DNA of 32,000 bases from positions 22,738 to 54,737 of the forward strand of contig SHMX01000011.1 of assembly GCA_008080745.1 (NCBI GenBank), in the 5' to 3' direction. Positions 368 to 28,271 of this stretch are shown here, one piece after another (positions within the stretch are counted from its first letter, which is position 1; each line of letters starts with the position of its first letter). A program made the translations under genes and the position numbers. The DNA is from Candidatus Thorarchaeota archaeon (lineage in GTDB: Archaea > Asgardarchaeota > Thorarchaeia > Thorarchaeales > Thorarchaeaceae). Under the pieces are notes generated by a model, which had not been told where the DNA came from, did not search any database, and was given only the letters and a program-made list of their open reading frames with translations.

Positions 368-1315
368 TCAGCCGACTCCAACAACTTCAAAGTCATCGAA
401 ATCTTCAGGACCTGAATTGCGCTTCGCCAACATCACTACAACGCCAATGATGACTATAGCACCAACTACACCGATACCAACAATCATGATTTGTGAAGCG
501 TCCATCACCAAGGGAGGTGGTGTGTCGCTTGTTGTGGTAGCAATTCCGCCAGATCCCTCGTTAATATCAATACCATAAGAAATAGTGACTGTGTCGTCTT
601 GGTCTAGAGCTGAAAATACACAATACCATGTTCCAGAGGTGGGGACCTCAAATGGACCGATGTCAGCCTGATGGTAATCATCCTTTATTGCAAAACCTGT
701 AGCACTGCCACCAGTCGTCCAAGCATTGTAGTTACTTTCATCACAGATGAAAAAATAGATTCCATCCGATGAGAACCAAGTTGAAAAATGACCGTCTATT
801 TCATCACCAGCATCGAGATTGAATGAGGTATACCACCATTCATCGGTCTCAAGAGTTTCTCCATACCTAGTATAATCCCAGTTTGATGGGTTATAATAAG
901 GAGAGTTGTCATCATCTAGATCCACACCAATATCCACAGTTACAGTGGTAGAACCTTCAGCATTACTGAATACGATATGCCAAGTATTAGTGGTCTGCAC
1001 AGTAAAGGAGATACCCATGGTGTGAATTCCTTCACTTAGCTCATATACGGAGGCACTTCTTCCGGCTTCCCACTCGCCCATATTGTAATCGTCAGCTATG
1101 AAGAAGTCAAGACCCTGCGTTTCAGAATGGGTTTCAAAAAAGCCAGAGATATCTGTACCAGATGAGAGGGATCCCGAAACATCGTACCATTCACCCGCAT
1201 TAAGAATAACATTTGTGTATTCGTTGTCCCAATCTGACGCAGCTACGTGCTGAGTCGAACTTGACGAAATGAGAATGAAAGAGAAAAACAACAAAATCAA
1301 GAATTTTTTATCCAC
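368..1315 (-). CDS. Type I membrane/surface protein with two tandem emp24/GOLD-like beta-sandwich repeats
   Basis: GTG start, signal peptide, two approx 100-aa internal repeats (L..[GD]EW...S..L..G..I.G.F.T.....G..FFI.D......W..G.SA.........H......F.V.T..TW..VFS), S/T/P linker, C-terminal TM helix and short acidic tail. Confidence 0.75.
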   Translation of the reverse strand: MDKKFLILLFFSFILISSSSTQHVAASDWDNEYTNVILNAGEWYDVSGSLSSGTDISGFFETHSETQGLDFFIADDYNMGEWEAGRSASVYELSEGIHTMGISFTVQTTNTWHIVFSNAEGSTTVTVDIGVDLDDDNSPYYNPSNWDYTRYGETLETDEWWYTSFNLDAGDEIDGHFSTWFSSDGIYFFICDESNYNAWTTGGSATGFAIKDDYHQADIGPFEVPTSGTWYCVFSALDQDDTVTISYGIDINEGSGGIATTTSDTPPPLVMDASQIMIVGIGVVGAIVIIGVVVMLAKRNSGPEDFDDFEVVGVG

Positions 1316-1463: not shown

Positions 1464-3692
1464 ATGGTTGCAATGAGTGAAGTTCCACCTGTATGGCAGA
1501 TGATAAAGGAAGCAATTGATGCGCTCGATGGACGGGCTACTCATGCGGAGATACGTGAATACATTCAGACGAAATATGGCGATATTTCGGATGCGATGAT
1601 TAAGACCGAGATAAATTTCTGTTCCGTCAATAGTCCAACAAGAATATACGGTCCAGAGAATCAAGACCCACGAAGTACTAGGAATCCAGATGATAGATAC
1701 GACCTTTTGTATCGTGTAGAACGTGGAACTGTAATGAAATATGACCCATATATTCATGGATACTGGGAGATAGCCCAGGACTCACAGGGAAGAATGGTTG
1801 TCAGACAAGATGTGATGGACGATGCAGATGTATTCCTTGAAACTAAAGACCCAGAAGAATTACGCAGAATAGGAGACCGTCTTGAAGAGCGACGAAGATA
1901 TGTTGAGGCGGAGCTTGTCTATAGGATTGCCATCGATTTGGATGAAGAATACCATGCAGCATGGAACAATCTTGCTCTAGTTTTGGAAAAGCAAGGACGA
2001 TATGAGGAGGCAAAAGAAGCCTACGAAAAAGCAATTTCTTTGAATCCGAATGACCCTGCAACTTGGAGTAATCTTGCAGATGCTCTAATTGAAATGAAGG
2101 CATTCTCTGAAGCAGAGAAAGCCTACAAGAAGGCACTGGAACTAGACAAGGAGAACCCGGTAACATGGAATAACTACGGTCTTGCCCTTGAAGAACAGGG
2201 ATTTTATGAGGAGGCAGAACGGGCTTTTCGAACATCTGTAAGAATCAATCCAGAGGATGCAGTTGCTTGGGGAAACCTTGGTGACCTTTTAGAACGTGAT
2301 GACAGACTTGAAGAGGCCGAACATGCATATCGACGCTCCGTTGAATTAGATCCAGATAATGCAGACATCTGGTATATGTTAGGATGGACACTAGAACAGA
2401 TGGACCGTTATGATGAGGCAATTGAAGCATATCGCTGGTCATCAGACATCGACCCAAATGATATCGAGATTTGGAAGAAGTTAGGAGAGGTTCTGCAATA
2501 TGTAAATCAATACGCAGAGGCATCCGATGCATATAGGAGAGCAATTAGAATAGAACCGAATGATTCCAAATTGTGGAGGTCATTTGGTTGGGTGCAACTG
2601 ATGGTCAACGAATTGAATACTGCTGAAAAATCATTTCTCAAAGCTATCAGTTACGAGTCGAATGATGTGATGTCCCGAATCGGAATTGCAGTCATCCAAA
2701 CAGAGGGGGAACAGTATAGTAGAACTATAAAGACATGTGAACAAATACTATCAATTGAGCCCGATAATCCATATGGGTTGGTATTTCGTGCTATAGCCAA
2801 ATGGAAACAAGGAGATATGGACGAATCTGAAAGAATGCTACATCATGCAACCGACCTTCATCCCGATTTTTATCTTGGATGGAGACACTTGGGAATATTC
2901 TACCAAGAAAAAGAAAGCTACTCAGAAGCAGAAGATTCACTCAGAATGGCCCTGGATCTTGAACCTACCTATGCAGATTTGCACTATGAATTAGGAGTTA
3001 TTCTTCTGGAACTTGATCAAAAAGAGGAGGCACTCAAAGAATTTCAAAGAGCGGTTAAATTGGATGACGGATTCGTCCAGGCATGGGCAAGATTAGCCCT
3101 CATAGCAGACGAACTATCAAAATCAACCATAATGGAGTCAGCCAAACAGAAATACAACGAACTGTCGAAAGAGGGTAAAAAGACACGTTCACCAGTTCTA
3201 ATTCCACCAGAAATAGCTGACTACGATGATGCGGAAGAGGTAGAAGAAATAGAAACTAGAAAACGAACTCGACGAACTTCACTTCAAACAGAAATAGATG
3301 AATTGGATTCATCCCAGACATTCACGACCCAGCTAATGGAACTGTTTGTGGACTGGTTAAAAAGAAAGGGGGTCAGTTCTAGGCAAGAGCCCGATCATGT
3401 TGATGTAATATTCCAAACAGAGAATCATACTTATGCTGTAGAGGTGAAAGCACTACGAAATCCAATAGATGATATTCGGGATGCGGTGGGTCGGCTGCTT
3501 CAGTACAATTTACTACCGGAAAGACGTCCTGCGGATATCTGGATTATCCTAACAGATGAAAAACCTGCAGATGCAGGACTTGTATGGATTCATAATCTAA
3601 GACAGAGAATGGGTAAAGAAAGTTTTCCAGTGTATCTGGGATGGCAAGAAGGTTCCGAGTTTATTTTTGATGAGATAGAATTGAATCTTTAG
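1464..3692 (+). CDS. N-terminal helical (HTH-like) domain + 12-13 TPR repeats + C-terminal PD-(D/E)xK nuclease domain
   Basis: Regular 34-aa TPRs from about aa 130 to 570 (W..LG..L...GRY.EA..AY..A..L.P). C-terminal VDV(I)F...AVEVK followed by IRDAVGRLLQY. Confidence 0.85.
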   Translation: MVAMSEVPPVWQMIKEAIDALDGRATHAEIREYIQTKYGDISDAMIKTEINFCSVNSPTRIYGPENQDPRSTRNPDDRYDLLYRVERGTVMKYDPYIHGYWEIAQDSQGRMVVRQDVMDDADVFLETKDPEELRRIGDRLEERRRYVEAELVYRIAIDLDEEYHAAWNNLALVLEKQGRYEEAKEAYEKAISLNPNDPATWSNLADALIEMKAFSEAEKAYKKALELDKENPVTWNNYGLALEEQGFYEEAERAFRTSVRINPEDAVAWGNLGDLLERDDRLEEAEHAYRRSVELDPDNADIWYMLGWTLEQMDRYDEAIEAYRWSSDIDPNDIEIWKKLGEVLQYVNQYAEASDAYRRAIRIEPNDSKLWRSFGWVQLMVNELNTAEKSFLKAISYESNDVMSRIGIAVIQTEGEQYSRTIKTCEQILSIEPDNPYGLVFRAIAKWKQGDMDESERMLHHATDLHPDFYLGWRHLGIFYQEKESYSEAEDSLRMALDLEPTYADLHYELGVILLELDQKEEALKEFQRAVKLDDGFVQAWARLALIADELSKSTIMESAKQKYNELSKEGKKTRSPVLIPPEIADYDDAEEVEEIETRKRTRRTSLQTEIDELDSSQTFTTQLMELFVDWLKRKGVSSRQEPDHVDVIFQTENHTYAVEVKALRNPIDDIRDAVGRLLQYNLLPERRPADIWIILTDEKPADAGLVWIHNLRQRMGKESFPVYLGWQEGSEFIFDEIELNL

Positions 3693-4903
3693 TGTGTTCG
3701 AAGAGCAGCCAGAGGTACATCACGAACATAGCTTTGGTCTGTCTTCCATCCAATCTCATCATTGTGATTCTCATGATAGAAATAATAGGTAAAAGCTGAG
3801 TCAAACTGCATCTGGAGAACAGACACATTGTCGGCATGTTCCCATATAAACTCTGAAAATTCTGGAGCAAAGGAGGGAGACGAGGTAGTGAACAAAACAA
3901 AACTATCCTCGTCCGATACCAATTGACACTCGAAGGGAACAAGCTTGGATCGGACGAAATGATGTAATGTCGAATTGTTCAATTCTGAATTCGGTCGGAA
4001 ATAGCCAATAATCGCTTGTGGATATGTCAAATCGAATACAGACCGATCATAATAGAGTTGTTCATCAGGGGCAACAGACTTGCGGATTTTCTTTACTCTG
4101 CGTGAAATAGTGGTCGGGTCACGATTATGATGATCTCCAAGATCTTTCTTAGGAATCTTGGAATTGATGGTCAATTCTCGAAGAAGTAATTTGTCAAGAG
4201 AATCAAGGGAAACTTTCTTCTTCAATTCAAGAGCGGGAAGAGATGGAATCTCTTTTTCGTGTTCAATCATTTTGTCCCAGATAATATCAAGGGCACTCTG
4301 TTTTAATCCCGGTTCAGATTTCAGGGCAGATTCAATCTTCCATGTGTTTGACTTCTTATCCCATTGACTAAAGTCAGCGGGAATTTTCGACGTATACAGT
4401 GAATTCTGAGTCTGAAAACTCTCGAAAAGACCCTGTTTCTGAAGGTCTTCAAACAGAGATTTCATTTCATTTTCAGTTGCTGGAGGGATATCGAACTGAG
4501 CATAAAAAACAGCCCCACGCGAATATGCTACCGTGCGATAATGAGTGTATGGATGCTCATCACACAACAACTTCAATTTGTTCAAGCTTTTCCTATCAGG
4601 AACCTGATGGAAGAATACATGCTGACGCCTCAGACCGAGCTCATGTGGGAGGTAGACTACCTCTATCTCTGTCTGTATGCGTTTTCCAAGAATTGGATCT
4701 GTTATTTCCTTATCAACACGAAGGAAACCTTTCTCCTTCATCTGAAGCAGCCTAGTACGTACTGTTTCAATAGACACGGAAATCTCAGAGCTTGTATTCA
4801 CAGCTGATTTAATCTCGTGAAGTGTAGATGATGGGTTATTCTTTAACTGAAGAAAGATTTCATAATCCTTCATATCGAATTCATAACCCCTCCAAGCAAC
4901 CAT
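3689..4903 (-). CDS. Tandem (double) Lrp/AsnC-like winged-helix transcriptional regulator
   Basis: Two wHTH segments (DYEIFLQLKNNPSSTLHEI...ETVRTRLLQMKEKG; LDSLDKLLLRELTINSKIPKKDLG...PTTISRRVKKI), each followed by an alpha/beta domain. Overlaps the convergent TPR gene by 4 nt. Confidence 0.75.
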   Translation of the reverse strand: MVAWRGYEFDMKDYEIFLQLKNNPSSTLHEIKSAVNTSSEISVSIETVRTRLLQMKEKGFLRVDKEITDPILGKRIQTEIEVVYLPHELGLRRQHVFFHQVPDRKSLNKLKLLCDEHPYTHYRTVAYSRGAVFYAQFDIPPATENEMKSLFEDLQKQGLFESFQTQNSLYTSKIPADFSQWDKKSNTWKIESALKSEPGLKQSALDIIWDKMIEHEKEIPSLPALELKKKVSLDSLDKLLLRELTINSKIPKKDLGDHHNRDPTTISRRVKKIRKSVAPDEQLYYDRSVFDLTYPQAIIGYFRPNSELNNSTLHHFVRSKLVPFECQLVSDEDSFVLFTTSSPSFAPEFSEFIWEHADNVSVLQMQFDSAFTYYFYHENHNDEIGWKTDQSYVRDVPLAALRTH

Positions 4904-5556: not shown

Positions 5557-5644
5557 TGACATTCGTGCAAGATAAGAAACTGACCTGATTGGGACCACCA
5601 AGACGGTCACGCTTCCGATTAACAATGATCGGGAGCATTCGGTG

Positions 5645-7495
5645 ATGAGAATGAAGAACAGACACAAAATGGTGTTGTTCGCAGCCGTATTGGCAGCAGT
5701 ACTTGTTTTTCCAAATCTATCTGCTATGCCCAATGCGACTGTTACAACAAGTTCGAATTATGTTGATGCTGTGATTATGTTTAATCCCGGTGTCGATGTG
5801 AATTTACAAGATTTTGACATTATTCACGAGTATAGCTCATTGAATGGTGTTACAGCAAGAATCCCCATGGTATTCTACAGAATACTGGAACAATCTTGGT
5901 TCGTATCAGCAATACAGATTGACCATGAAGTAACGATTTTCCAAGACACTCTAGATTGGGGTGTTGACGATGTCGAAGCAGAACGTGTATGGGGCGGTAG
6001 TGAGAACGCGATTGATGTCATCAGTGGTAATGTTGATGGTACCGGTATCAATGTAGCAATCTTAGATACTGGTATTGACTATACCCATCCTGATTTGGAT
6101 GACATCTATGCTGGCGGTTATGACTTTGTCGAGAATGACAATGACCCCAAAGACGAAAATGGCCACGGTACTCATTGTGCAGGAATAGTTGCTGCAGAAG
6201 ATAATGGACAAGGCGTCATTGGTGTCGCACCTCATGCCTCAATATATGCGGTACGAGTTCTTGATGCACAAGGTTCTGGCTCTATCAGCGATATTGTTGC
6301 TGGGATTGATTGGGCTGTAAACAACAACATGGATATAATTTCCATGAGTCTAGGAGCTAGTTCGGGAGATTCATCCTTGGAGTCTGCAGTTGATCAGGCC
6401 TACAATGCTGGGCTTGTAGTGGTTGCAGCTTCTGGTAATGACGGACATAATGGAATCTCATATCCGGCAGCATATTCAAGCGTAATTGCAGTTGGAGCTA
6501 CCGATTCTAATCATAATCTGGCTAGCTTTAGCAACTATGGAGCTGAACAAGAGGTAGTTGCACCAGGCGTGGACATCTATAGTACCATGCCAACATACAG
6601 AGTCACTCTGAACTCTTGGTGGTATGGTGGATTAAGCCAAGACTATTCCGAGATGGATGGTACATCAATGGCATGCCCGATGGTTGCTGGTGTTGCAGCA
6701 CTGATTCTTGATGCAGATGCAACACTAAGTCCTTCAGAGGTAAGGGATATACTACACACTACTTCAGTAGACCTTGGCTCATCGGGTTGGGATAGCACCT
6801 ATGGATATGGACTAGTCGATGCAGAGATGGCTGTTGAAGAGGCTGGCGGAGGAGGAACTCCAACAGATGAGAAACCAACGGTTTCAATTGTTGATCCAAA
6901 TAACGGTGAAACTGTTTCGGACACTCATAGAATCTACGTATCAGCCAGTGATGACAATGGTATTTCAAAAGTAGAAATCAATGTTGATTCTGGAAACTGG
7001 ATCGATATAACAAGCAATTTCGATGGAACATACTACTATTACGACTGGGACACCACTCAAGAGTCAGATGGTAGCCATACAATAAACGCTCGTGCCACAG
7101 ACACAGCAAGTCAGACCGATACTGATTCAATATCCGTAACCGTGAACAACGGAGGTACTACTACCGACACGATGCACGTTGCATCAATTGCAATGAGCTA
7201 TGAAGAGGTACGCTGGTGGTTCTGGGTTATCGGATATGATGTATACACCGAGGTAACAGTACATGATGGGAACGGAAACCCACTCGAAGGCGTAACTGTA
7301 TACCTTGAAATGACTCTCCCAGATGGTTCAAGCGCAACTGGTAATGCTGATACCGGGTCTGATGGAATTGTTACTTTTGTCTTAGAACAAGGTGATTCGG
7401 GAACCTACACTTCCACAGTGACAGACCTTCAGAAGACCGGATACAGCTACGTATCATCTGACAACGTAGAAACCTCAGAAACTCTAACTATCTAA
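5645..7495 (+). CDS. Secreted subtilisin-like S8 serine peptidase with C-terminal Ig-like domains
   Basis: Signal peptide and propeptide. Catalytic motifs ILDTGID, GHGTHCAG and GTSMACP, oxyanion ASGN. Two Thr/Asp-rich beta-sandwich domains at the C-terminus. Confidence 0.95.
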   Translation: MRMKNRHKMVLFAAVLAAVLVFPNLSAMPNATVTTSSNYVDAVIMFNPGVDVNLQDFDIIHEYSSLNGVTARIPMVFYRILEQSWFVSAIQIDHEVTIFQDTLDWGVDDVEAERVWGGSENAIDVISGNVDGTGINVAILDTGIDYTHPDLDDIYAGGYDFVENDNDPKDENGHGTHCAGIVAAEDNGQGVIGVAPHASIYAVRVLDAQGSGSISDIVAGIDWAVNNNMDIISMSLGASSGDSSLESAVDQAYNAGLVVVAASGNDGHNGISYPAAYSSVIAVGATDSNHNLASFSNYGAEQEVVAPGVDIYSTMPTYRVTLNSWWYGGLSQDYSEMDGTSMACPMVAGVAALILDADATLSPSEVRDILHTTSVDLGSSGWDSTYGYGLVDAEMAVEEAGGGGTPTDEKPTVSIVDPNNGETVSDTHRIYVSASDDNGISKVEINVDSGNWIDITSNFDGTYYYYDWDTTQESDGSHTINARATDTASQTDTDSISVTVNNGGTTTDTMHVASIAMSYEEVRWWFWVIGYDVYTEVTVHDGNGNPLEGVTVYLEMTLPDGSSATGNADTGSDGIVTFVLEQGDSGTYTSTVTDLQKTGYSYVSSDNVETSETLTI

Positions 7496-7510
7496 GAGTT
7501 GTCTTCCCCT

Positions 7511-7542
7511 AAGCCCGATTCTTTCGGGCTTCTTCTTTTTTT
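7511..7542 (+). terminator. Hairpin + U-tract terminator candidate
   Basis: AAGCCCGA-ttctt-TCGGGCTT (8-bp perfect stem) followed by CTTCTTTTTTT, 15 nt after the protease stop and between convergent genes. Confidence 0.7.
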
Positions 7543-9031
7543 ATTCGAATTGTGGCCTCTTCTTCTTTTTGAAAACGCCTCTTACACTTTCTAATGGAAG
7601 TTGGAGAGTATGCCGCAAGCCATCAACAGTAGAGAGGTTGCGTACATTTCTTCGAGTTTCAGCAATGATTGCATCGATTATTACCTTCTCCTCAACTTCA
7701 CCCTGTTCCTTAACCAGAGCTAATCGATGAATTGCATAAACACCAATCAATACGGAGAATAGAAAGAGGAAATCAATGCCGGAGAGATAGATTGTGTTGA
7801 ATATGATTTGGCCCATAGGATTGTTCCAAGTGAAGGTGAATATGAGTTCATGTTCTGCTAAGAGATCCGCCGAAATGCCACCTATGATTGGAGCCACTGA
7901 TGCCGCAGAAGATATGACAACACTTCTTGTTGCAATGTAACCAGGAGCCTGCCCTCTGGGTGCGAGTTTCAACCCGATATTAGTGGATGTCAGGTTAACA
8001 CCTGCAGCAGACAGGCCAGTAAGAAGATGAATAATAACAAGAAGGGGAATATCTAGAAAAGCTTCCTGAGCAACGGTGGTAAATGCCCAGAGAAGAGTGC
8101 CCACAAGAAACAGAGGTGCAGTTATTTGCAGAACCGATTTGTTGGTGAACCGATCAGACAGCGAACCCCAAAACCTGAAGAATACGATACTGACAATCTG
8201 GGTCAATGCAGAGAGGCCTGTTGCAATAGGTAATTCAAGTCCCAACCGAGTCAAGAGATATACAGTAAAGAATGGTGCTACTAAACTGGTGCTGAAACTC
8301 CATAGACCAGAAAAAATCATGAGATTTCTAAAATTATCGTTTTCAAAGGGGTGACGGATTTGGTCTAGGAAACCGAGCTGTTTCTCCGACACCTCCATTT
8401 TTGGCTCAGGTATAGATTGAGTAAGAATAAGAGAAACAATTCCAAAAGAGAAGGCCAGAAAGAAAAGAAAACTGTAACTGTAAACGGTTAATCCAAAACC
8501 CCAATTACTCCACTCACCTACAATAATGCCACCGAGGAAAGTTACTATTACCGCTATAATGGCATTATAGGCTAAACGCCGTGAGAAGAAACGTCCCAAC
8601 TTGTTTAACGGTACCAAATCACGCAACCAAGAATTCCAGCTAGGAGAACCAATTGCGATGAATGCAGATTGGATTGCCACAGTACCAATGAGAAAAATCA
8701 ATGATAAGTCGGGGGTACTGAGAAAGGGAATCAAAGCCATAAATAGGATGGCAAGCCGACTACCAATTGTGGTAATCGTGTTAATACGCTTACGTGTTCG
8801 GTATTTCTCCACAATATAGATCGAGGGGATTTGCAAGAACTGAGTGATAGAGGGAGTTGCAGCTAAAAGACCAATGACAGTATTAGGAGCCCCCAATAGA
8901 ATAGCAAATGCTACTAAGAAGACACCTTCTGTAAGAGTGATTTTTACTTGAGAAGCTAAACCTTGTTGAAGGACTCTTCTAAGTGCCTTATCATCCACTA
9001 TTGTAGAAGATTCTGTCACTTTATCACTCAT
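7541..9031 (-). CDS. MFS transporter
   Basis: About 12 hydrophobic helices, MFS motif FWGSLSDRFTNK, and WLRDLVP...GRFFSRR. Start refined to ATG 9031 (MSDKVT). Confidence 0.9.
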   Translation of the reverse strand: MSDKVTESSTIVDDKALRRVLQQGLASQVKITLTEGVFLVAFAILLGAPNTVIGLLAATPSITQFLQIPSIYIVEKYRTRKRINTITTIGSRLAILFMALIPFLSTPDLSLIFLIGTVAIQSAFIAIGSPSWNSWLRDLVPLNKLGRFFSRRLAYNAIIAVIVTFLGGIIVGEWSNWGFGLTVYSYSFLFFLAFSFGIVSLILTQSIPEPKMEVSEKQLGFLDQIRHPFENDNFRNLMIFSGLWSFSTSLVAPFFTVYLLTRLGLELPIATGLSALTQIVSIVFFRFWGSLSDRFTNKSVLQITAPLFLVGTLLWAFTTVAQEAFLDIPLLVIIHLLTGLSAAGVNLTSTNIGLKLAPRGQAPGYIATRSVVISSAASVAPIIGGISADLLAEHELIFTFTWNNPMGQIIFNTIYLSGIDFLFLFSVLIGVYAIHRLALVKEQGEVEEKVIIDAIIAETRRNVRNLSTVDGLRHTLQLPLESVRGVFKKKKRPQFE

Positions 9032-9132
9032 TTCAGTTTTCTCCAAGAAACGACAACCATTAGATGATACATTCAAACTAATGAACACTTGGTCTAAAAT
9101 AGGAGTATAAATTGTGTTAGCGATAATAAGTA

Positions 9133-9220
9133 GGTAGGCTTCCAGCAAGGCGCACTATTTGGGTGTGGTAACGAAGGAACATGTGTTACCATAATGTCCC
9201 CTGCCAGGGGGCCTACCCAC
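9133..9220 (+). ncRNA. Candidate structured ncRNA / leader RNA of unknown family
   Basis: 11-bp terminal stem GGTAGGCTTCC (9133-9143)/GGGGGCCTACC (9207-9217) with two G-U pairs valid only on the + strand. Internal hairpin TGGTAAC/GTTACCA. TATAAATT at 9106-9113, 27 nt upstream. 54% GC over 9131-9220. Confidence 0.5.
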
Positions 9221-9320
9221 CTCTTTATGGAATTTGTATGCACTAAAATTTTTTGACTAAACAAGAAATCAAGTAATACCACATGGTAATGTTTAGATGT
9301 GGCTTTAATACGCCAAACTC

Positions 9321-13838: not shown

Positions 13839-14005
13839 TATTAAATACACATCCTTTATTTAATTATGTTACGTATTGTGACTTTATATTATTAATTTGT
13901 TAAACTAATAGCCCCCAATTTTGAGTAAATCAGAGTGACAGACGTTACCACGAAATTTTTCAATACGAGCTAGATAGACCATTCTATCCATGAGTGGTGT
14001 TCGTC

Positions 14006-14503
14006 ATGCCAAAACGCACAAGATGCCCGCATTGTGACCGTCTTTTTAGCAGAGATGTTATTGATGAACACATCAGGAAATGCAGATATAGAGAATATGA
14101 GATAAGAACGAGAAGAAGGGTGCCAAGAAGGAAAAATGTAGTTATTGACGGAAACAACTTGGCATATTATCTATCTCCTACTGGTACACCAAGATTGAGC
14201 AATATTATCAGAGCTCGAAATAGCCTGATCAATGCGGGATATCGACCAGTAGTTATTGTTTCTGCCGCTCTGAAGTATCGCATCGATGACCCAGACAAAC
14301 TAAGATCCATGATTCAGGAGAGAAAAGTGATTGAAACAAGGAGAGGTACAAACGACGATCTTGCAATCATAAATTATGCTCTAAAATATAACACGGATAT
14401 AGTAAGTAATGATCGATTCCTTGACTATCTTGATAGATATCCCTGGATTCCTGACAGACTAAAGAAATACCGAATGACTCCCTCTGGTTTAATCTTGATA
14501 TGA
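14006..14503 (+). CDS. C2HC zinc finger + NYN (PIN-like, Zc3h12a/Regnase-type) ribonuclease
   Basis: CPHC-x11-H-x3-C finger, then VVIDGNN, TNDD and VSNDRFLD acidic tetrad typical of NYN RNases. Start refined to ATG 14006. Confidence 0.85.
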   Translation: MPKRTRCPHCDRLFSRDVIDEHIRKCRYREYEIRTRRRVPRRKNVVIDGNNLAYYLSPTGTPRLSNIIRARNSLINAGYRPVVIVSAALKYRIDDPDKLRSMIQERKVIETRRGTNDDLAIINYALKYNTDIVSNDRFLDYLDRYPWIPDRLKKYRMTPSGLILI

Positions 14504-14581
14504 CCTCGTTGTGTACTCTTCGAAAGCATTAAAATTAGTACCGAAAATCAAACTTGAACGTCTTAGTGAGTAGTGAAGAAA

Positions 14582-16372
14582 ATGAAAATCGACGAGTTAC
14601 GCCAGAAGTATTTGGACTTTTTCAAAGAGAAGGATCACAAAGTCATAGGTTCGGCATCCCTGATGCCTGAGAATGATCCCACTGTTCTCTTCACTACTGC
14701 AGGTATGCATCCTCTGGTTCCATTCCTATTAGGACAGAAGCATCCACAGGGAAAGAGACTGGTGGATGTCCAGAAATGTATCCGTACTACCGATATTGAT
14801 GATGTTGGTGACACAACTCATCTTACATTCTTTGAGATGCTAGGAAACTGGAGTCTCGGCGATTACTGGAAAGAAGAAGCTATAACATGGAGTTATGAAT
14901 TCCTTACTTCCAAAAAATGGCTAGGACTGAATCCTGATACTTTATCAGTGACTGTATTTGAGGGTGATGACGATGCTCCTCGTGATGAAGAATCAGCAGA
15001 GATTTGGAAAAGGATAGGAATTCCTGAGGAACGAATATATTACTTACCAAAGAAAGATAATTGGTGGGGACCAGCGGGACAGACAGGACCATGTGGTCCT
15101 TGTACTGAGATGTTCATCGAAGTCAAAGAAATACCCAAATGCAGTCCAGATTGTAGACCCGGTTGTAGCTGTGGTCACTTTGTGGAAATCTGGAACGATG
15201 TGTTCATGCAATACAACAAGCAACAAGATGGTACATATGTCCAACTTAAGCAGAAGAATGTAGACACGGGAATGGGCGTTGAGAGGACAGCAGCAATGCT
15301 CCAAGGAGTGCCTACAGTATACGATACTGATGCATTCACGCCTTTGATAGCGAAGATCAGAGAGCATTTTGAAAAAGAAGAAGAGTCTGAAGAGGACCTC
15401 AAATACATTCGAATCATCGTAGACCACGTTAAATCTGCAGTTATGATAATGGCTGATGATCGAAAGATTGCACCCTCAAACGTTGAACATGGCTACATTG
15501 TACGCAGACTCATTAGAAAAGCGATTCTTGGATTTGATAGATTAGAGATAGAGAATGATCTAATGAAAGATCTCGCTGAAATTGTCATAGAGATGTACAA
15601 GGATGTCTATGACGAAGTTGAACGGAATCGCGATTTTGTTATGGAGAATTTAGATCGCGAAGCAAAGAAGTTTAGGAGAACCCTCCGAAAAGCGCTTAGA
15701 AAATTCAATCGTATCTACGATGATAAAGGAAAAATTACAGGAGAAGATGCCTTTCTGCTCTTTACAAGCTTTGGTCTACCAATAGAAATGACAAAAGACC
15801 TTGCTGAAGAAAGAGGGTTCAAAATTGATATGCAGACATTCCGGGAGGAATTCGAACAACATCGAGATGTTTCAAGAAGTGGAAGTGAGAAGAAATTCAG
15901 AGGTGGACTTGCGGATCATAGTGAAATCATAACCAAACTTCATACTGCAACACACCTCCTTCAAGCAGCCCTAAGGAAAGTATTAGGTGACGCTGTAAAA
16001 CAAAATGGGAGTAACATCACAAAAGATCGTCTCAGATTCGATTTCACCTTTCCCAGAAAACTTACCACTGAAGAACTGAAGGAAGTAGAAGAGTTGGTCA
16101 ACAAGGTCATTGATAGAGATTTGAAAGTGACCCAAAAATTCATGCCATTGGACGAAGCATTAGAGAAAGGAGCACTAGCGTTCTTCAAAGACACCTACGG
16201 AGAGGAGGTCTCAGTCTATTCGGTTGGAGATTTCAGTATGGAAGTCTGTGGGGGACCTCATGTCGAACATACATCGGTTTTAGGACATTTCAAAATCAAA
16301 AAGCAGGAAAACATTGGTGCAGGTCTAGTGAGAATCAGAGCAATTGTAGAGCCTGAAAAGGCATCGGCGTAA
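14582..16372 (+). CDS. alaS: Alanine--tRNA ligase, short bacterial-type form lacking C-Ala
   Basis: LFTTAGMHPL, QKCIRT, HLTFFEMLGNWS, VDTGMGVER. Editing HTATH and CGGPH motifs are present and the protein ends right after the editing domain (about 596 aa). Confidence 0.97.
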   Translation: MKIDELRQKYLDFFKEKDHKVIGSASLMPENDPTVLFTTAGMHPLVPFLLGQKHPQGKRLVDVQKCIRTTDIDDVGDTTHLTFFEMLGNWSLGDYWKEEAITWSYEFLTSKKWLGLNPDTLSVTVFEGDDDAPRDEESAEIWKRIGIPEERIYYLPKKDNWWGPAGQTGPCGPCTEMFIEVKEIPKCSPDCRPGCSCGHFVEIWNDVFMQYNKQQDGTYVQLKQKNVDTGMGVERTAAMLQGVPTVYDTDAFTPLIAKIREHFEKEEESEEDLKYIRIIVDHVKSAVMIMADDRKIAPSNVEHGYIVRRLIRKAILGFDRLEIENDLMKDLAEIVIEMYKDVYDEVERNRDFVMENLDREAKKFRRTLRKALRKFNRIYDDKGKITGEDAFLLFTSFGLPIEMTKDLAEERGFKIDMQTFREEFEQHRDVSRSGSEKKFRGGLADHSEIITKLHTATHLLQAALRKVLGDAVKQNGSNITKDRLRFDFTFPRKLTTEELKEVEELVNKVIDRDLKVTQKFMPLDEALEKGALAFFKDTYGEEVSVYSVGDFSMEVCGGPHVEHTSVLGHFKIKKQENIGAGLVRIRAIVEPEKASA

Positions 16373-23317: not shown

Positions 23318-23806
23318 ATGGCTGATATTTTCATCCGGTATGAAACTACAACAGGAATGGAAAAAACAGCAAAATTTGATACTGATGAAACCAAAATCAA
23401 CTTGGATCTGAGAGATATCTCCTCAATTGACCTTTTGCCCCTTGTATGGTGTGATAAGTTGGAACACCTAAGTCTGAGGAATAATCGTTTAACGCATATT
23501 AGTTTGACACCACTTTCAAAATGTAGAAACTTGACATGTCTTGCATTGAGTAATAATAAGTTAGAGGAGATTGATTTTTCACCCTTAACAAGTTGCAAGA
23601 AGCTTGAGGAGTTATTTCTCAAGGGAAATAATCTCACCCGAGTGGATATCTCACCTCTTTTTCAATGTAGCAATCTTCAAGTCTTCGAGATTGATGAATC
23701 TGTATCCATGACCGCAAACATGCTTCTAAGAACAATTGGAAATTGGCCATCAGTGTTGGTACAACAATATGGCAAGATTCTCTGGAAGGTTCCTCGAAGA
23801 AGTTGA
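23318..23806 (+). CDS. Leucine-rich repeat protein
   Basis: 22-aa repeats L..L.L..N.L..I.L.PL..C (LEHLSLRNNRLTHISLTPLSKC; LTCLALSNNKLEEIDFSPLTSC; LEELFLKGNNLTRVDISPLFQC). Confidence 0.92.
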   Translation: MADIFIRYETTTGMEKTAKFDTDETKINLDLRDISSIDLLPLVWCDKLEHLSLRNNRLTHISLTPLSKCRNLTCLALSNNKLEEIDFSPLTSCKKLEELFLKGNNLTRVDISPLFQCSNLQVFEIDESVSMTANMLLRTIGNWPSVLVQQYGKILWKVPRRS

Positions 23807-25585: not shown

Positions 25586-26584
25586 CTATATCTCAACTGC
25601 ACCAAGAGAGGTCATATCCCCAACCACCTCAAGACCCGCGTTGGTGCCAGTTCCTTCAAAAAGTAGTCGACGTCCACTGCTAGTGAGTTCGTAAAAACGA
25701 ATTCCAATCTCCGCAGTAAGGCTCTCAATAATACGTCCAGACATGGATCCACGTACTGGAGAACGTAATGTCGCACCATCGGCTCGTGACGCATTAACTA
25801 CAATGGCATGGTTCTTATCATGTACTTGGAAAAGTATGTTCTTCTCGGAGACCTGAATCTTTGATAACCGAGCACCCGTGTAGGTTGTAAAACGGTATAC
25901 CTTACCACCATACAGGAGACCAATCAGAAAACCTGCAAACTCAGTTCCAAACCAAGGGATTGTTGCAATTGAAGACGTAAACGAAATACCTTCTTCCCGG
26001 AAGTGATTTGATTGCATCCAAATCCATGATGTTGGAAATCCCTGTCCCCAGTCCTTTTCAAGATAGCCACGACCCCCTGTGAAATCAATCTCGGAGCCAT
26101 CAATAATCATCTTACCTTCTATCTGGTGGTCAAAGCTAAGGATTCCATGAAGGCATTGCATTCCAGGAATAAATCGGAATAGACCCATTGCCCCAGGAGA
26201 TAGGAGATTTACCGGCCAGGGTATTATTCCTGAAAAGTGTAATTCACCCTCAACCTGCTGTTCATCATTATTTACTGAGAGTGTGATTTTATCTAACGAA
26301 AATGTATTTTCATCAATTCGAACATGAAACGAATGTTTTGCACTTTCAAATGATGAGATTGGAAAACGATGATATGTAGCAGAAGCTGTATTGCCTGTTA
26401 AGACCTGGATAAAGGAATGCCGAGAGTTATCAAGCCCACCGAAACTCACCCCAGGAATTATTGCATACGAATTAGTACGGTCTTTATCAACCAATTTGAA
26501 ATACCATCCCTCAAAATAGTCATTCATTTCAGGCCTTCCTTGATACATCTCAGGCTTCCAGTAGGTACGCAATGCATGAAACAT
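25586..26584 (-). CDS. Tocopherol cyclase family (VTE1-like) protein
   Basis: YFEGWYFK, MGLFRFIPGMQCLHGILS, GRGYLEKDWGQGFPTSWIWMQSNHF. Confidence 0.85.
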   Translation of the reverse strand: MFHALRTYWKPEMYQGRPEMNDYFEGWYFKLVDKDRTNSYAIIPGVSFGGLDNSRHSFIQVLTGNTASATYHRFPISSFESAKHSFHVRIDENTFSLDKITLSVNNDEQQVEGELHFSGIIPWPVNLLSPGAMGLFRFIPGMQCLHGILSFDHQIEGKMIIDGSEIDFTGGRGYLEKDWGQGFPTSWIWMQSNHFREEGISFTSSIATIPWFGTEFAGFLIGLLYGGKVYRFTTYTGARLSKIQVSEKNILFQVHDKNHAIVVNASRADGATLRSPVRGSMSGRIIESLTAEIGIRFYELTSSGRRLLFEGTGTNAGLEVVGDMTSLGAVEI

Positions 26585-27512: not shown

Positions 27513-28271
27513 GTGAGTTTCGATGAAGTTTCTATAGCATATGATAATTCGATAGATTGGAAAAAGAGACTTGATAGAGAGATACCATTCATCGTTAATA
27601 CGCTACACGCTCCGGAGGAGAGCGAAATATTAGATATGGCATGTGGTACGGGACGTCATGCAGTAGAACTTGCTTCAAAAGGCGCAAATGTAACAGCATT
27701 CGATAACAGCATCTCTATGATTCATAGGGCAAAACACTTTGCTGAATTGCACAATGCACAGATACATTTTTTCGTTGCAGACATGATGAATATGAGTGAA
27801 CATATTTCCAAATCCTTTGATTTGGTAATCTGCTTGGGAAATTCTTTAGCTCTCCTGAAAACGTGGAAAGAGGTAGAATATGTCATTCGTGTTGTTCATG
27901 ATATCTTAGTGCAGGAAGGATCATTCATTTTTCAGTCTCTAAACTTTGAAGAGATTCTTCTTAGTGGGTTCAGATTGTTTCCTATGAAGAGTGGTGAAAC
28001 ACCCAGAGGAAATGAGGTAGTATTTGGACGATTCTTTGATCATATTCCCGGGTCTGATTATTCGCAATTGATTCTCTCATCATTCTTGAAGATGAGCAAA
28101 GACTGGGAAGTGAGAGTTGAAAATCGAAGAGTTCTTCAATTCAAAAGAGATCTTATTGAACCCATACTAACCCGGACAGGGTTCAGAGAAATAGAGTTCT
28201 TTTCGGACTATTCAAAGTCCACATTTCATTCATCAAGCAGTCGTAATATGATTGTACAAGCAAAGAAATAG
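27513..28271 (+). CDS. Class I SAM-dependent methyltransferase
   Basis: ILDMACGTGRHA, TAFDNS, FDLVICLGNS. Located 4 nt after the SDR stop. Confidence 0.92.
   Translation: MSFDEVSIAYDNSIDWKKRLDREIPFIVNTLHAPEESEILDMACGTGRHAVELASKGANVTAFDNSISMIHRAKHFAELHNAQIHFFVADMMNMSEHISKSFDLVICLGNSLALLKTWKEVEYVIRVVHDILVQEGSFIFQSLNFEEILLSGFRLFPMKSGETPRGNEVVFGRFFDHIPGSDYSQLILSSFLKMSKDWEVRVENRRVLQFKRDLIEPILTRTGFREIEFFSDYSKSTFHSSSSRNMIVQAKK

Follow-up and report, generated by a model that had tools for sequence, protein, structure and literature searches.

The DNA considered here is a 32,000-nucleotide (nt) window from the genome of a Candidatus Thorarchaeota archaeon (assembly GCA_008080745.1, contig SHMX01000011.1, positions 22,738 to 54,737 of the forward strand). 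The gene under study is an open reading frame (ORF) at positions 1464-3692 of the plus strand of this window, which starts with ATG and encodes 742 amino acids (aa) plus a stop, with 0 internal stops. The gene is monocistronic. Upstream it faces a divergent gene at 368-1315 (-) across a 148-bp intergenic region (1316-1463), presumed from its coordinates only to be the promoter region; downstream it converges with a gene at 3689-4903 (-), with a 4 nt overlap. A check for sequencing runs turned up no RNA and two DNA runs from one study, each flagged as a possible source. The product is laid out as a globular N-terminal domain (residues ~1-120, nt 1464-1823), an array of tetratricopeptide repeats (TPRs; residues 129-570, nt 1848-3173), a charged low-complexity linker (residues 571-613, nt 3174-3302) and a C-terminal domain predicted to adopt a PD-(D/E)xK nuclease fold (residues 614-742, nt 3303-3689). 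Once these parts are assigned, no stretch is left over for a nucleoside triphosphatase (NTPase). A preliminary description of the locus, made from the sequence alone, had noted 12-13 TPRs at about nt 1851-3176, an acidic/basic linker, the residues D647 and E660-V-K662 and the peptide IRDAVGRLLQY; all are found where it placed them (I671-Y681 for the peptide), the limits of the array being right within 3 nt.

Residues 9-89 of the N-terminal domain (nt 1488-1730) match the Pfam family DUF7669 (PF24706) at E 3.1e-14, with 53.4 bits passing the gathering cut-off of 23. The 742-aa protein itself is present in the ESM Atlas, and the structural rows named DUF7669 match at template modelling (TM) scores of 0.84-0.87. 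Among its structural-neighbour clusters there, HNH occurs in 94% of one and HNH_2 in 100% of a second; a third carries NucS_C in 89% and DUF7669 in 96% of its members, and a fourth Endonuc-BglII in 96% and DUF7669 in 13%. Because DUF7669 precedes nucleases of three unrelated folds, its best reading is that of a targeting or reader module. The preliminary description had likened the N-terminus, from recall, to a domain fused to NucS-like endonucleases; the motifs that it quoted are present, and DUF7669 is indeed fused directly to NucS_C in other proteins. A check for a winged-helix or helix-turn-helix (HTH) fold, prompted by the label 'HTH-like' in that description, gave only a sub-threshold Linker_histone match (residues 8-50, E 0.0014, 19.3 bits vs 22.4). 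Comparison of the domain with PDB sequences returned chance-level viral capsid rows only, and a literature search for DUF7669 by name found none.

The TPR array consists of 13 units of 34 residues each, in a single unbroken register without indels; 12 units follow the canonical pattern and the final one caps the array. It is matched by the Pfam models TPR_1 (E 1.1e-68) and TPR_2 (E 7.7e-66). No recent donor of the array was found in the organism's own genome, where, among the other TPR proteins, the closest reaches 36% identity over 160 residues. The array is followed by the charged linker, KKTRSPVLIPPEIADYDDAEEVEEIETRKRTRR...

The C-terminal domain gave no sequence match in Pfam (scanned with residues 570-742), NCBIfam or PDB, even at E<=10; nor did a profile built from an alignment of 63 sequences (A1, also the input for AlphaFold2 and hhalign) match any PDB chain at that threshold. 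Word-indexed homolog searches found nothing. The family emerged when 1.84 billion cluster representatives were searched exhaustively with HMMER: 142 proteins passed E<=1e-3, and 33 of these also passed E<=1e-10. These representatives are 63-584 aa long and always carry the domain at their C-terminal end. Residue conservation, counted among the homologs aligned to the profile of the nuclease domain, defines a signature of the form E, D, ExK, R, GQxxEYN. The catalytic-type residues of the 742-aa protein (within nt 3387-3449) conform to it: E642 (nt 3387-3389) is found in 128/132 homologs, D647 (nt 3402-3404) in 132/134, E660 (nt 3441-3443) in 136/137 and K662 (nt 3447-3449) in 137/137, in keeping with the conservation that the preliminary description had asked of its proposed catalytic residues. 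The same holds for R672 (137/137), G676 (136/138), Y681 (138/139) and N682 (128/140). The helix that contains several of these positions reads IRDAVGRLLQY in this protein (residues 671-681, nt 3474-3506), with R677 in place of Q and Q680 in place of E; the family consensus is AIREALGQLLEYN (IREALGQLLEY in the feature list). The Q and the Y of this helix are also invariant in 9/9 NucS_C sequences from related genomes, and we take the Q-x3-Y helix to be the active-site-lining motif of the RecB family. The NucS active site is described as carrying RecB-like motifs in the available text of PMC8228993.

Modelling of the C-terminal domain by AlphaFold2 from alignment A1 reached a predicted local distance difference test (pLDDT) score of 94.4 and a predicted TM score (pTM) of 0.89. 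The elements of the model follow the order alpha-beta-beta-beta-alpha-beta-alpha-beta-beta (H3-21, E26-28, E35-38, E43-49, H54-70, E79-84). It replaced an earlier single-sequence prediction of residues 600-742 (pLDDT 68.6), for which fold searches gave unrelated low-score rows. Compared with 48,161 chains by VIA-align, the A1 model is closest to AF1548 (1y88; Z 10.3, root-mean-square deviation 2.3, 100 aligned), followed by XisH (2okf, Z 9.1), the C-domain of NucS (2vld, Z 8.7), PaqCI (8.4) and McrC (8.3); further rows include Cdn1, Card1, Can2, NucC, FokI, BsoBI and other restriction enzymes. The top rows from Foldseek are MspJI (E 1.2e-3), XisH, YaeQ, AF1548 and Hjc, with a probability of 1.00 for MspJI, XisH and AF1548. 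These structural matches are, as we understand them, all PD-(D/E)xK-fold proteins, AF1548 being presumably classed with the Mrr-like restriction-fold proteins. The model combines the core fold with an acidic residue on strand 2 (D647) and a (D/E)xK motif on strand 3 (E660, K662), and the C-terminal domain is on this basis a predicted PD-(D/E)xK domain, as the preliminary description had proposed.

Assignment to a named family is a different matter. The profile-profile comparison of A1 with NucS_C (PF01939) by hhalign spanned 75 columns; it gave E 4.8e-4 and a probability of 32%, and it brought E, D, ExK and Q..Y into register. Points in favour of a kinship with NucS/EndoMS are the minimal PD-(D/E)xK fold of the model (2vld residues 126-233 in the comparison above) and the residue order E, D, ExK, Q-x3-Y of the family. 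On the other side, residues 570-742 are missed by the NucS_C hidden Markov model (HMM) at E<=10, a genome-wide six-frame search with this model matching a locus on contig C2 instead, and the 742-aa protein has neither the N-terminal mismatch-binding domain of NucS nor the Q. The relation to Mrr (Mrr_cat, PF04471) and to NOV_C/DUF3883 (PF13020) goes no further than the common fold: neither family is matched by the 742-aa protein (E<=10) or by 79 homologs (E<=0.01), Mrr_cat reaches an hhalign probability of 0.4% and its genome-wide six-frame matches fall at other loci only, and the evidence that sets NOV_C apart comes from HMM searches. Of the kinship suggested by the preliminary description, which had compared the helix to the 'IREAIGQLLEY' of Mrr/DUF3883-like nucleases with R for Q, the helix thus stands as the consensus of the domain's own family and the Mrr/DUF3883 connection falls. 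SduA_C yields an hhalign probability of 0.5%. PDDEXK_9 appears below threshold in 7/79 homologs. The nuclease part of the PADLOC LmuA model matches weakly 4/50 family representatives, the 742-aa protein not being among its matches, and no SMC-like protein is encoded among the neighbours of the gene, which does not qualify as a Lamassu LmuA. The domain represents an unnamed PD-(D/E)xK family whose nearest named family is NucS_C, and which is distinct from Mrr_cat, NOV_C and SduA_C.

The order of domains recurs outside the window. In G001, the only other genome of the genus, a 741-aa ortholog has the same 13 units, is 79.6% identical over 741 aligned residues, keeps D647, E660 and K662 and has the same neighbours on both sides. 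With a same-genus ortholog at this level of identity, the feature set of the ORF is not due to chance. A more distant protein, P0007 (409 aa), is colinear, with DUF7669, ~3 TPRs, a linker and the nuclease, and P0075, the copy in genome G033, shows DUF7669, 1 TPR and the nuclease in a form that looks decayed at both ends. At its locus (L007/L022, G033:C10; L007 ORF 1447-2391 on the minus strand), this G033 copy lacks the first DUF7669 helix, and beyond the EKP motif its C-terminus departs from the consensus; the gene is probably decaying. Variants with another N-terminal part exist as well: P0006 and L016 combine an EVE domain with ~5 TPRs and the nuclease, and P0004 has a different N-domain, a TPR and the nuclease. 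In a FastTree phylogeny of 181 nuclease domains, which has few columns and many unresolved forks, all 7 TPR-bearing rows fall into one 14-row clade with a Shimodaira-Hasegawa (SH)-like support of 95, a clade that takes in genomes of the window's own taxonomic family, and the window protein and its ortholog are sister to the EVE-TPR-nuclease group. The preliminary description had not recognised the architecture and had named its absence from relatives as a ground for doubt; given G001, P0007, P0075 and the EVE-bearing sister group, the three-domain architecture is not a one-off. As no other representative exceeds ~5 TPRs, this genus alone is known to have the 13-repeat form. The ORF product is an unusually long member of a rare, unnamed, modular nuclease family: a curious variant rather than a new type of system.

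The two orthologs allowed the constraint on each region to be estimated from nonsynonymous (pN) and synonymous (pS) differences. The N-domain is the most conserved part (pN 0.035, 92.5% identity), followed by the TPRs (pN 0.12, 80%), the nuclease (pN 0.18, 70%) and, as the least conserved part, the linker (pN 0.22, 65% over residues 573-619). As pS is ~0.75, and thus saturated, dN/dS (the ratio of nonsynonymous to synonymous substitution rates) cannot be given. Purifying selection acts on every region; of the folded ones, the nuclease is constrained least. E642, D647, E660, K662, R672 and Y681 are kept in both orthologs. The arginine in the Q-x3-Y helix suggests modified or weakened catalysis; with this helix changed, the present copy may cut with altered properties or have lost its activity.

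The family as a whole is highly modular. When the 111 representatives that have 80 or more residues ahead of the nuclease were clustered by BLAST, 34 N-terminal types emerged, the largest with 43 and 19 members. The clearest EVE match (P0064, E 6.7e-8) belongs to the 19-member type. The 43-member type, itself unnamed, is also seen with nucleases of the HNH_2 and NOV_C kinds and, in Bacillota, with TPR proteins. EVE was identified in 5/79 scanned homologs and DUF7669 in 2/79. Under PADLOC, one N-domain of the family matches UzuA (E 6.7e-25) and one PDC-S02 (E 6e-16).

The distribution is patchy. The nuclease domain was found in 11/400 genomes of a phylum sample, all belonging to the taxonomic family of the window genome (f1, Asgard Thorarchaeota-type); besides the window genome, 10/85 genomes of f1 have it. 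A search of 185,579 species genomes, with a pattern that demanded the GQ motif, confirmed 56 loci, most of them in Acidobacteriota and Proteobacteria and few in archaea. The scan of viral contigs with A1 confirmed no relative; neither did scans of metagenome contigs, whose patterns were narrow, so that they carry little weight. A literature search for Asgard defense systems with restriction and TPR components found nothing relevant. In raw counts taken without a background rate, DNA methyltransferases lie within +/-4 ORFs of the family member in 5/16 loci (in one case as a complete, plasmid-borne type I restriction-modification (R-M) system); 5 further loci of the 16 show other hallmarks of defence or mobility, and 6/16 show none. 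The hallmarks in those five are conjugation genes; an antitoxin and a transposase; an HNH protein; an HSDR_N protein; and a helicase with a PLD nuclease. We regard the family as a rare candidate reader-plus-nuclease defence family of bacteria and Asgard archaea. We infer that, taken as a whole, it behaves like the restriction-type or Shedu-type defence nucleases, and that the 742-aa copy is a resident, vertically inherited one.

Three loci deserve separate mention. In a plasmid record (L038, 398-8357), a 154-aa family member preceded by a 161-aa ORF lies directly downstream of a complete HsdR-HsdS-HsdM type I R-M operon and beside an integrase and a PIN gene. On a Thorarchaeota contig (L069), a family member without TPRs (5920-6840) adjoins a separate 788-aa TPR protein (6873-9236, minus strand), with a superfamily 1 (SF1) helicase (AAA_11/AAA_12) and a PLD-type protein nearby; this is possibly a split version of the TPR and nuclease theme. 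Genome G008 has a copy of 182 aa made of the nuclease domain only (L005/L017, G008:C9), which is preceded by many stops and is off consensus in its C-terminal third; this is either a remnant or a minimal version. Whether the family contains many pseudogenes was also considered, and the idea was rejected: the 'stops inside' proved mostly to be the genes' own stop codons, and only the G033 and G008 copies look damaged.

As to function, we put at about even the chances that the gene product is a single-chain, stand-alone protein of the form reader, spacer and nuclease, in which DUF7669 provides targeting, cutting is tethered and the TPRs form a spacer or interaction surface. DUF7669, attached elsewhere to HNH, NucS_C and BglII-type nucleases, would recognise a nucleic-acid target. 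The nuclease, held on a flexible charged linker, would then cut nearby DNA through E642, D647, E660 and K662. The TPR solenoid would serve as a rigid spacer and as a surface on which the protein self-associates or binds a partner, and could in this way set or control the access of the nuclease to DNA. A double-strand break would need two catalytic domains; a homodimer prediction for the nuclease domain gave a median score of 0.40, vs a mark of 0.42, and was counted for neither side.

Close precedents are the modification-dependent (type IV) restriction endonucleases, in which an EVE, PUA, SRA or winged-helix domain is joined to an HNH or PD-(D/E)xK nuclease, as in VcaM4I and MspJI. This class of reader-plus-nuclease enzymes is described in the parts available of PMC7897488, PMC6765204 and PMC7641849. 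The 742-aa protein resembles it in having a putative reader and then a predicted nuclease on one chain; moreover, EVE-bearing members of the family include its sister group, and MspJI is the top Foldseek row. Two features set it apart. EVE is found in relatives and not in the 742-aa protein, and a long TPR array between reader and nuclease is absent from the architectures described in the available portions of those sources (PMC7897488, PMC6765204, PMC7641849). A comparable likeness exists with Shedu (SduA), a single-gene system in which N-terminal regions of great variability precede and regulate a conserved C-terminal PD-(D/E)xK nuclease; a NucS-like nuclease restrained by highly diverse N-terminal regions is reported in the accessible part of bioRxiv 10.1101/2023.08.10.552762. 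Unlike Shedu, the protein has no match to SduA_C (PF14082/DUF4263) in Pfam scans, nor did a genome-wide search with PF14082 find any in its own genome or in 43 sampled f1 genomes, and it matches no PADLOC Shedu model, the hhalign probability being the 0.5% given above; a TPR spacer is not mentioned for Shedu in that portion of bioRxiv 10.1101/2023.08.10.552762. The plan, a single-chain reader-plus-nuclease enzyme, is known; what is new is that the nuclease family is unnamed in the libraries searched, and the unusual insertion of TPRs.

Several observations weigh against an active reader-plus-nuclease enzyme of this kind. Four sites that are conserved in the family are changed in the window protein and in its ortholog alike: Q677 (137/138 homologs) is R, E680 (123/139) is Q, Y684 (126/140) is L and D705 (127/139) is G. 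The pair sits on a long stem branch in the tree, and its nuclease domain is the fastest-evolving folded part (70% vs 92.5% for the N-domain). The NucS_C link is statistically weak, with its hhalign probability of 32%, and the neighbourhood counts of the family lack, as said, a background. The surroundings of the gene do not help either. Its neighbours code for a secreted protein, HTH proteins, a subtilase, a major facilitator superfamily (MFS) transporter and metabolic enzymes; no methylase, integrase or defence gene lies near it in the 32-kb window, the sole methyltransferase of which is a generic, small-molecule-type Methyltransf_25 protein (27513-28271). The defence island that the preliminary description had thought worth looking for is not there. 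The G+C content of the ORF equals that of its surroundings and synteny is kept in G001, so that a resident cellular gene fits better than a defence cassette. PADLOC, another of the checks then proposed, gave generic TPR-driven matches only, the N- and C-terminal domains of the 742-aa protein matching no model.

Much of this would be accounted for if the protein had been domesticated and its nuclease impaired, the fold being used only for DNA binding or protein scaffolding and the TPRs recruiting cellular partners to what would be a chromatin, repair or regulatory adaptor. The loss of the invariant Q together with changes at three more near-invariant sites in both orthologs, the long stem branch, the faster evolution of the nuclease relative to the N-domain and the TPRs, and the housekeeping context with stable synteny all agree with such a history. 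Against it, the retention of E642, D647, E660, K662, R672 and Y681 in both orthologs is not expected after a long neutral decay of the active site, the pN of the nuclease (0.18) is far below pS, and R677 could still contact a phosphate. We regard domestication as somewhat unlikely.

The preliminary description had favoured a sensor-gated immune nuclease, in which the 13-TPR solenoid binds a foreign, for example viral, protein or peptide and thereby releases or assembles the nuclease, much as in the TPR-sensor STAND/Avs systems without their NTPase. TPR arrays and effectors of the restriction-endonuclease fold are both known from NTP-dependent conflict systems, according to the text available of PMC7159879. 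The 742-aa protein shares both elements with the STAND/Avs-type systems and differs from them in having no NTPase and no partner gene nearby. The family, moreover, is defence-like in its swappable N-regions, its R-M or mobile neighbours (10/16 loci), its weak matches to LmuA, UzuA and PDC-S02 and its patchy distribution; the TPR array is under purifying selection (80% identity, pN 0.12 vs pS 0.75) and so has a maintained function; a flexible charged linker lies between TPRs and nuclease; and the restraint of a NucS-like nuclease by N-terminal regions has the precedent of Shedu (bioRxiv 10.1101/2023.08.10.552762, in the part available). However, the analysis neither observed nor predicted a ligand, a partner or a step of activation, and the gene, outside any defence island, is syntenic and vertically conserved in the genus. 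The 1-5 TPRs of the relatives suggest an origin of the repeats as a spacer or oligomerisation element, not as a tuned sensor. One would expect the surface of an immune sensor to diversify, but here the TPRs vary less than the nuclease; and the viral-contig scan, having found no family member, gives no sign of an arms race. A sensor-gated nuclease is on balance unlikely. A fuller version of this scheme, which we consider very unlikely, would make the protein an NTPase-free, single-chain Asgard immune sensor: the 13-TPR superhelix would bind a viral or cellular protein (or a nucleic-acid end, as IFIT does) and so license the tethered NucS-like nuclease, DUF7669 would anchor the protein on DNA, and Q677R with the neighbouring changes would hold the nuclease inactive until licensing occurs.

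A classical type II-like or other sequence-specific restriction nuclease, paired with a methyltransferase encoded elsewhere in the genome, would go well with the DNA methyltransferase genes adjoining family members in 5/16 loci and with the structural matches to the type II/IIS enzymes PaqCI, FokI and BsoBI, but is barely credible here, the window having no methyltransferase except the Methyltransf_25 protein and the swappable EVE and DUF7669 N-domains pointing to a reader-plus-nuclease logic and not to a cognate R-M pair.

Whichever of these explanations applies, a nuclease family not named by Pfam is now defined, with a sharp signature and many exchangeable N-terminal domains, and in one of its clades reader and nuclease are separated by an inserted TPR spacer, 1 to 13 repeats long. 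Should the array prove to control the nuclease, the protein would be a simple, NTPase-free model of how repeat sensors gate effectors; if it does not, the gene would exemplify an accessory nuclease turned resident, with an altered active site. The protein is important only if control of the nuclease by the array is shown.

Some other genes of the window are worth recording. The convergent gene at 3689-4903 (-) encodes a 404-aa protein with two AsnC-type/winged HTH matches and a weak PADLOC Csa3 match (E 1.1e-4), and is found at the same place in G001. The subtilase at 5642-7495 (+), also conserved in G001, contains Big_7 and Big_1 domains and is matched by PADLOC's generic model 'subtilase' (E 9.6e-33); its product is probably a secreted protease of the ordinary kind. 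A small gene for an NYN/Zc3h12a-type RNase (13994-14503, plus strand) lies directly upstream of an alanyl-tRNA synthetase ORF (14573-16372, plus strand) whose product, with only 599 aa, corresponds to the catalytic core and the SAD domain. A 162-aa leucine-rich-repeat protein is encoded in this archaeal genome at 23318-23806 (+). Finally, the ORF at 25586-26584 (-) matches the C-terminal half of tocopherol cyclase (PF14249, E 3.9e-23) and adjoins the phosphate-transporter genes PHO4 and PhoU_div.

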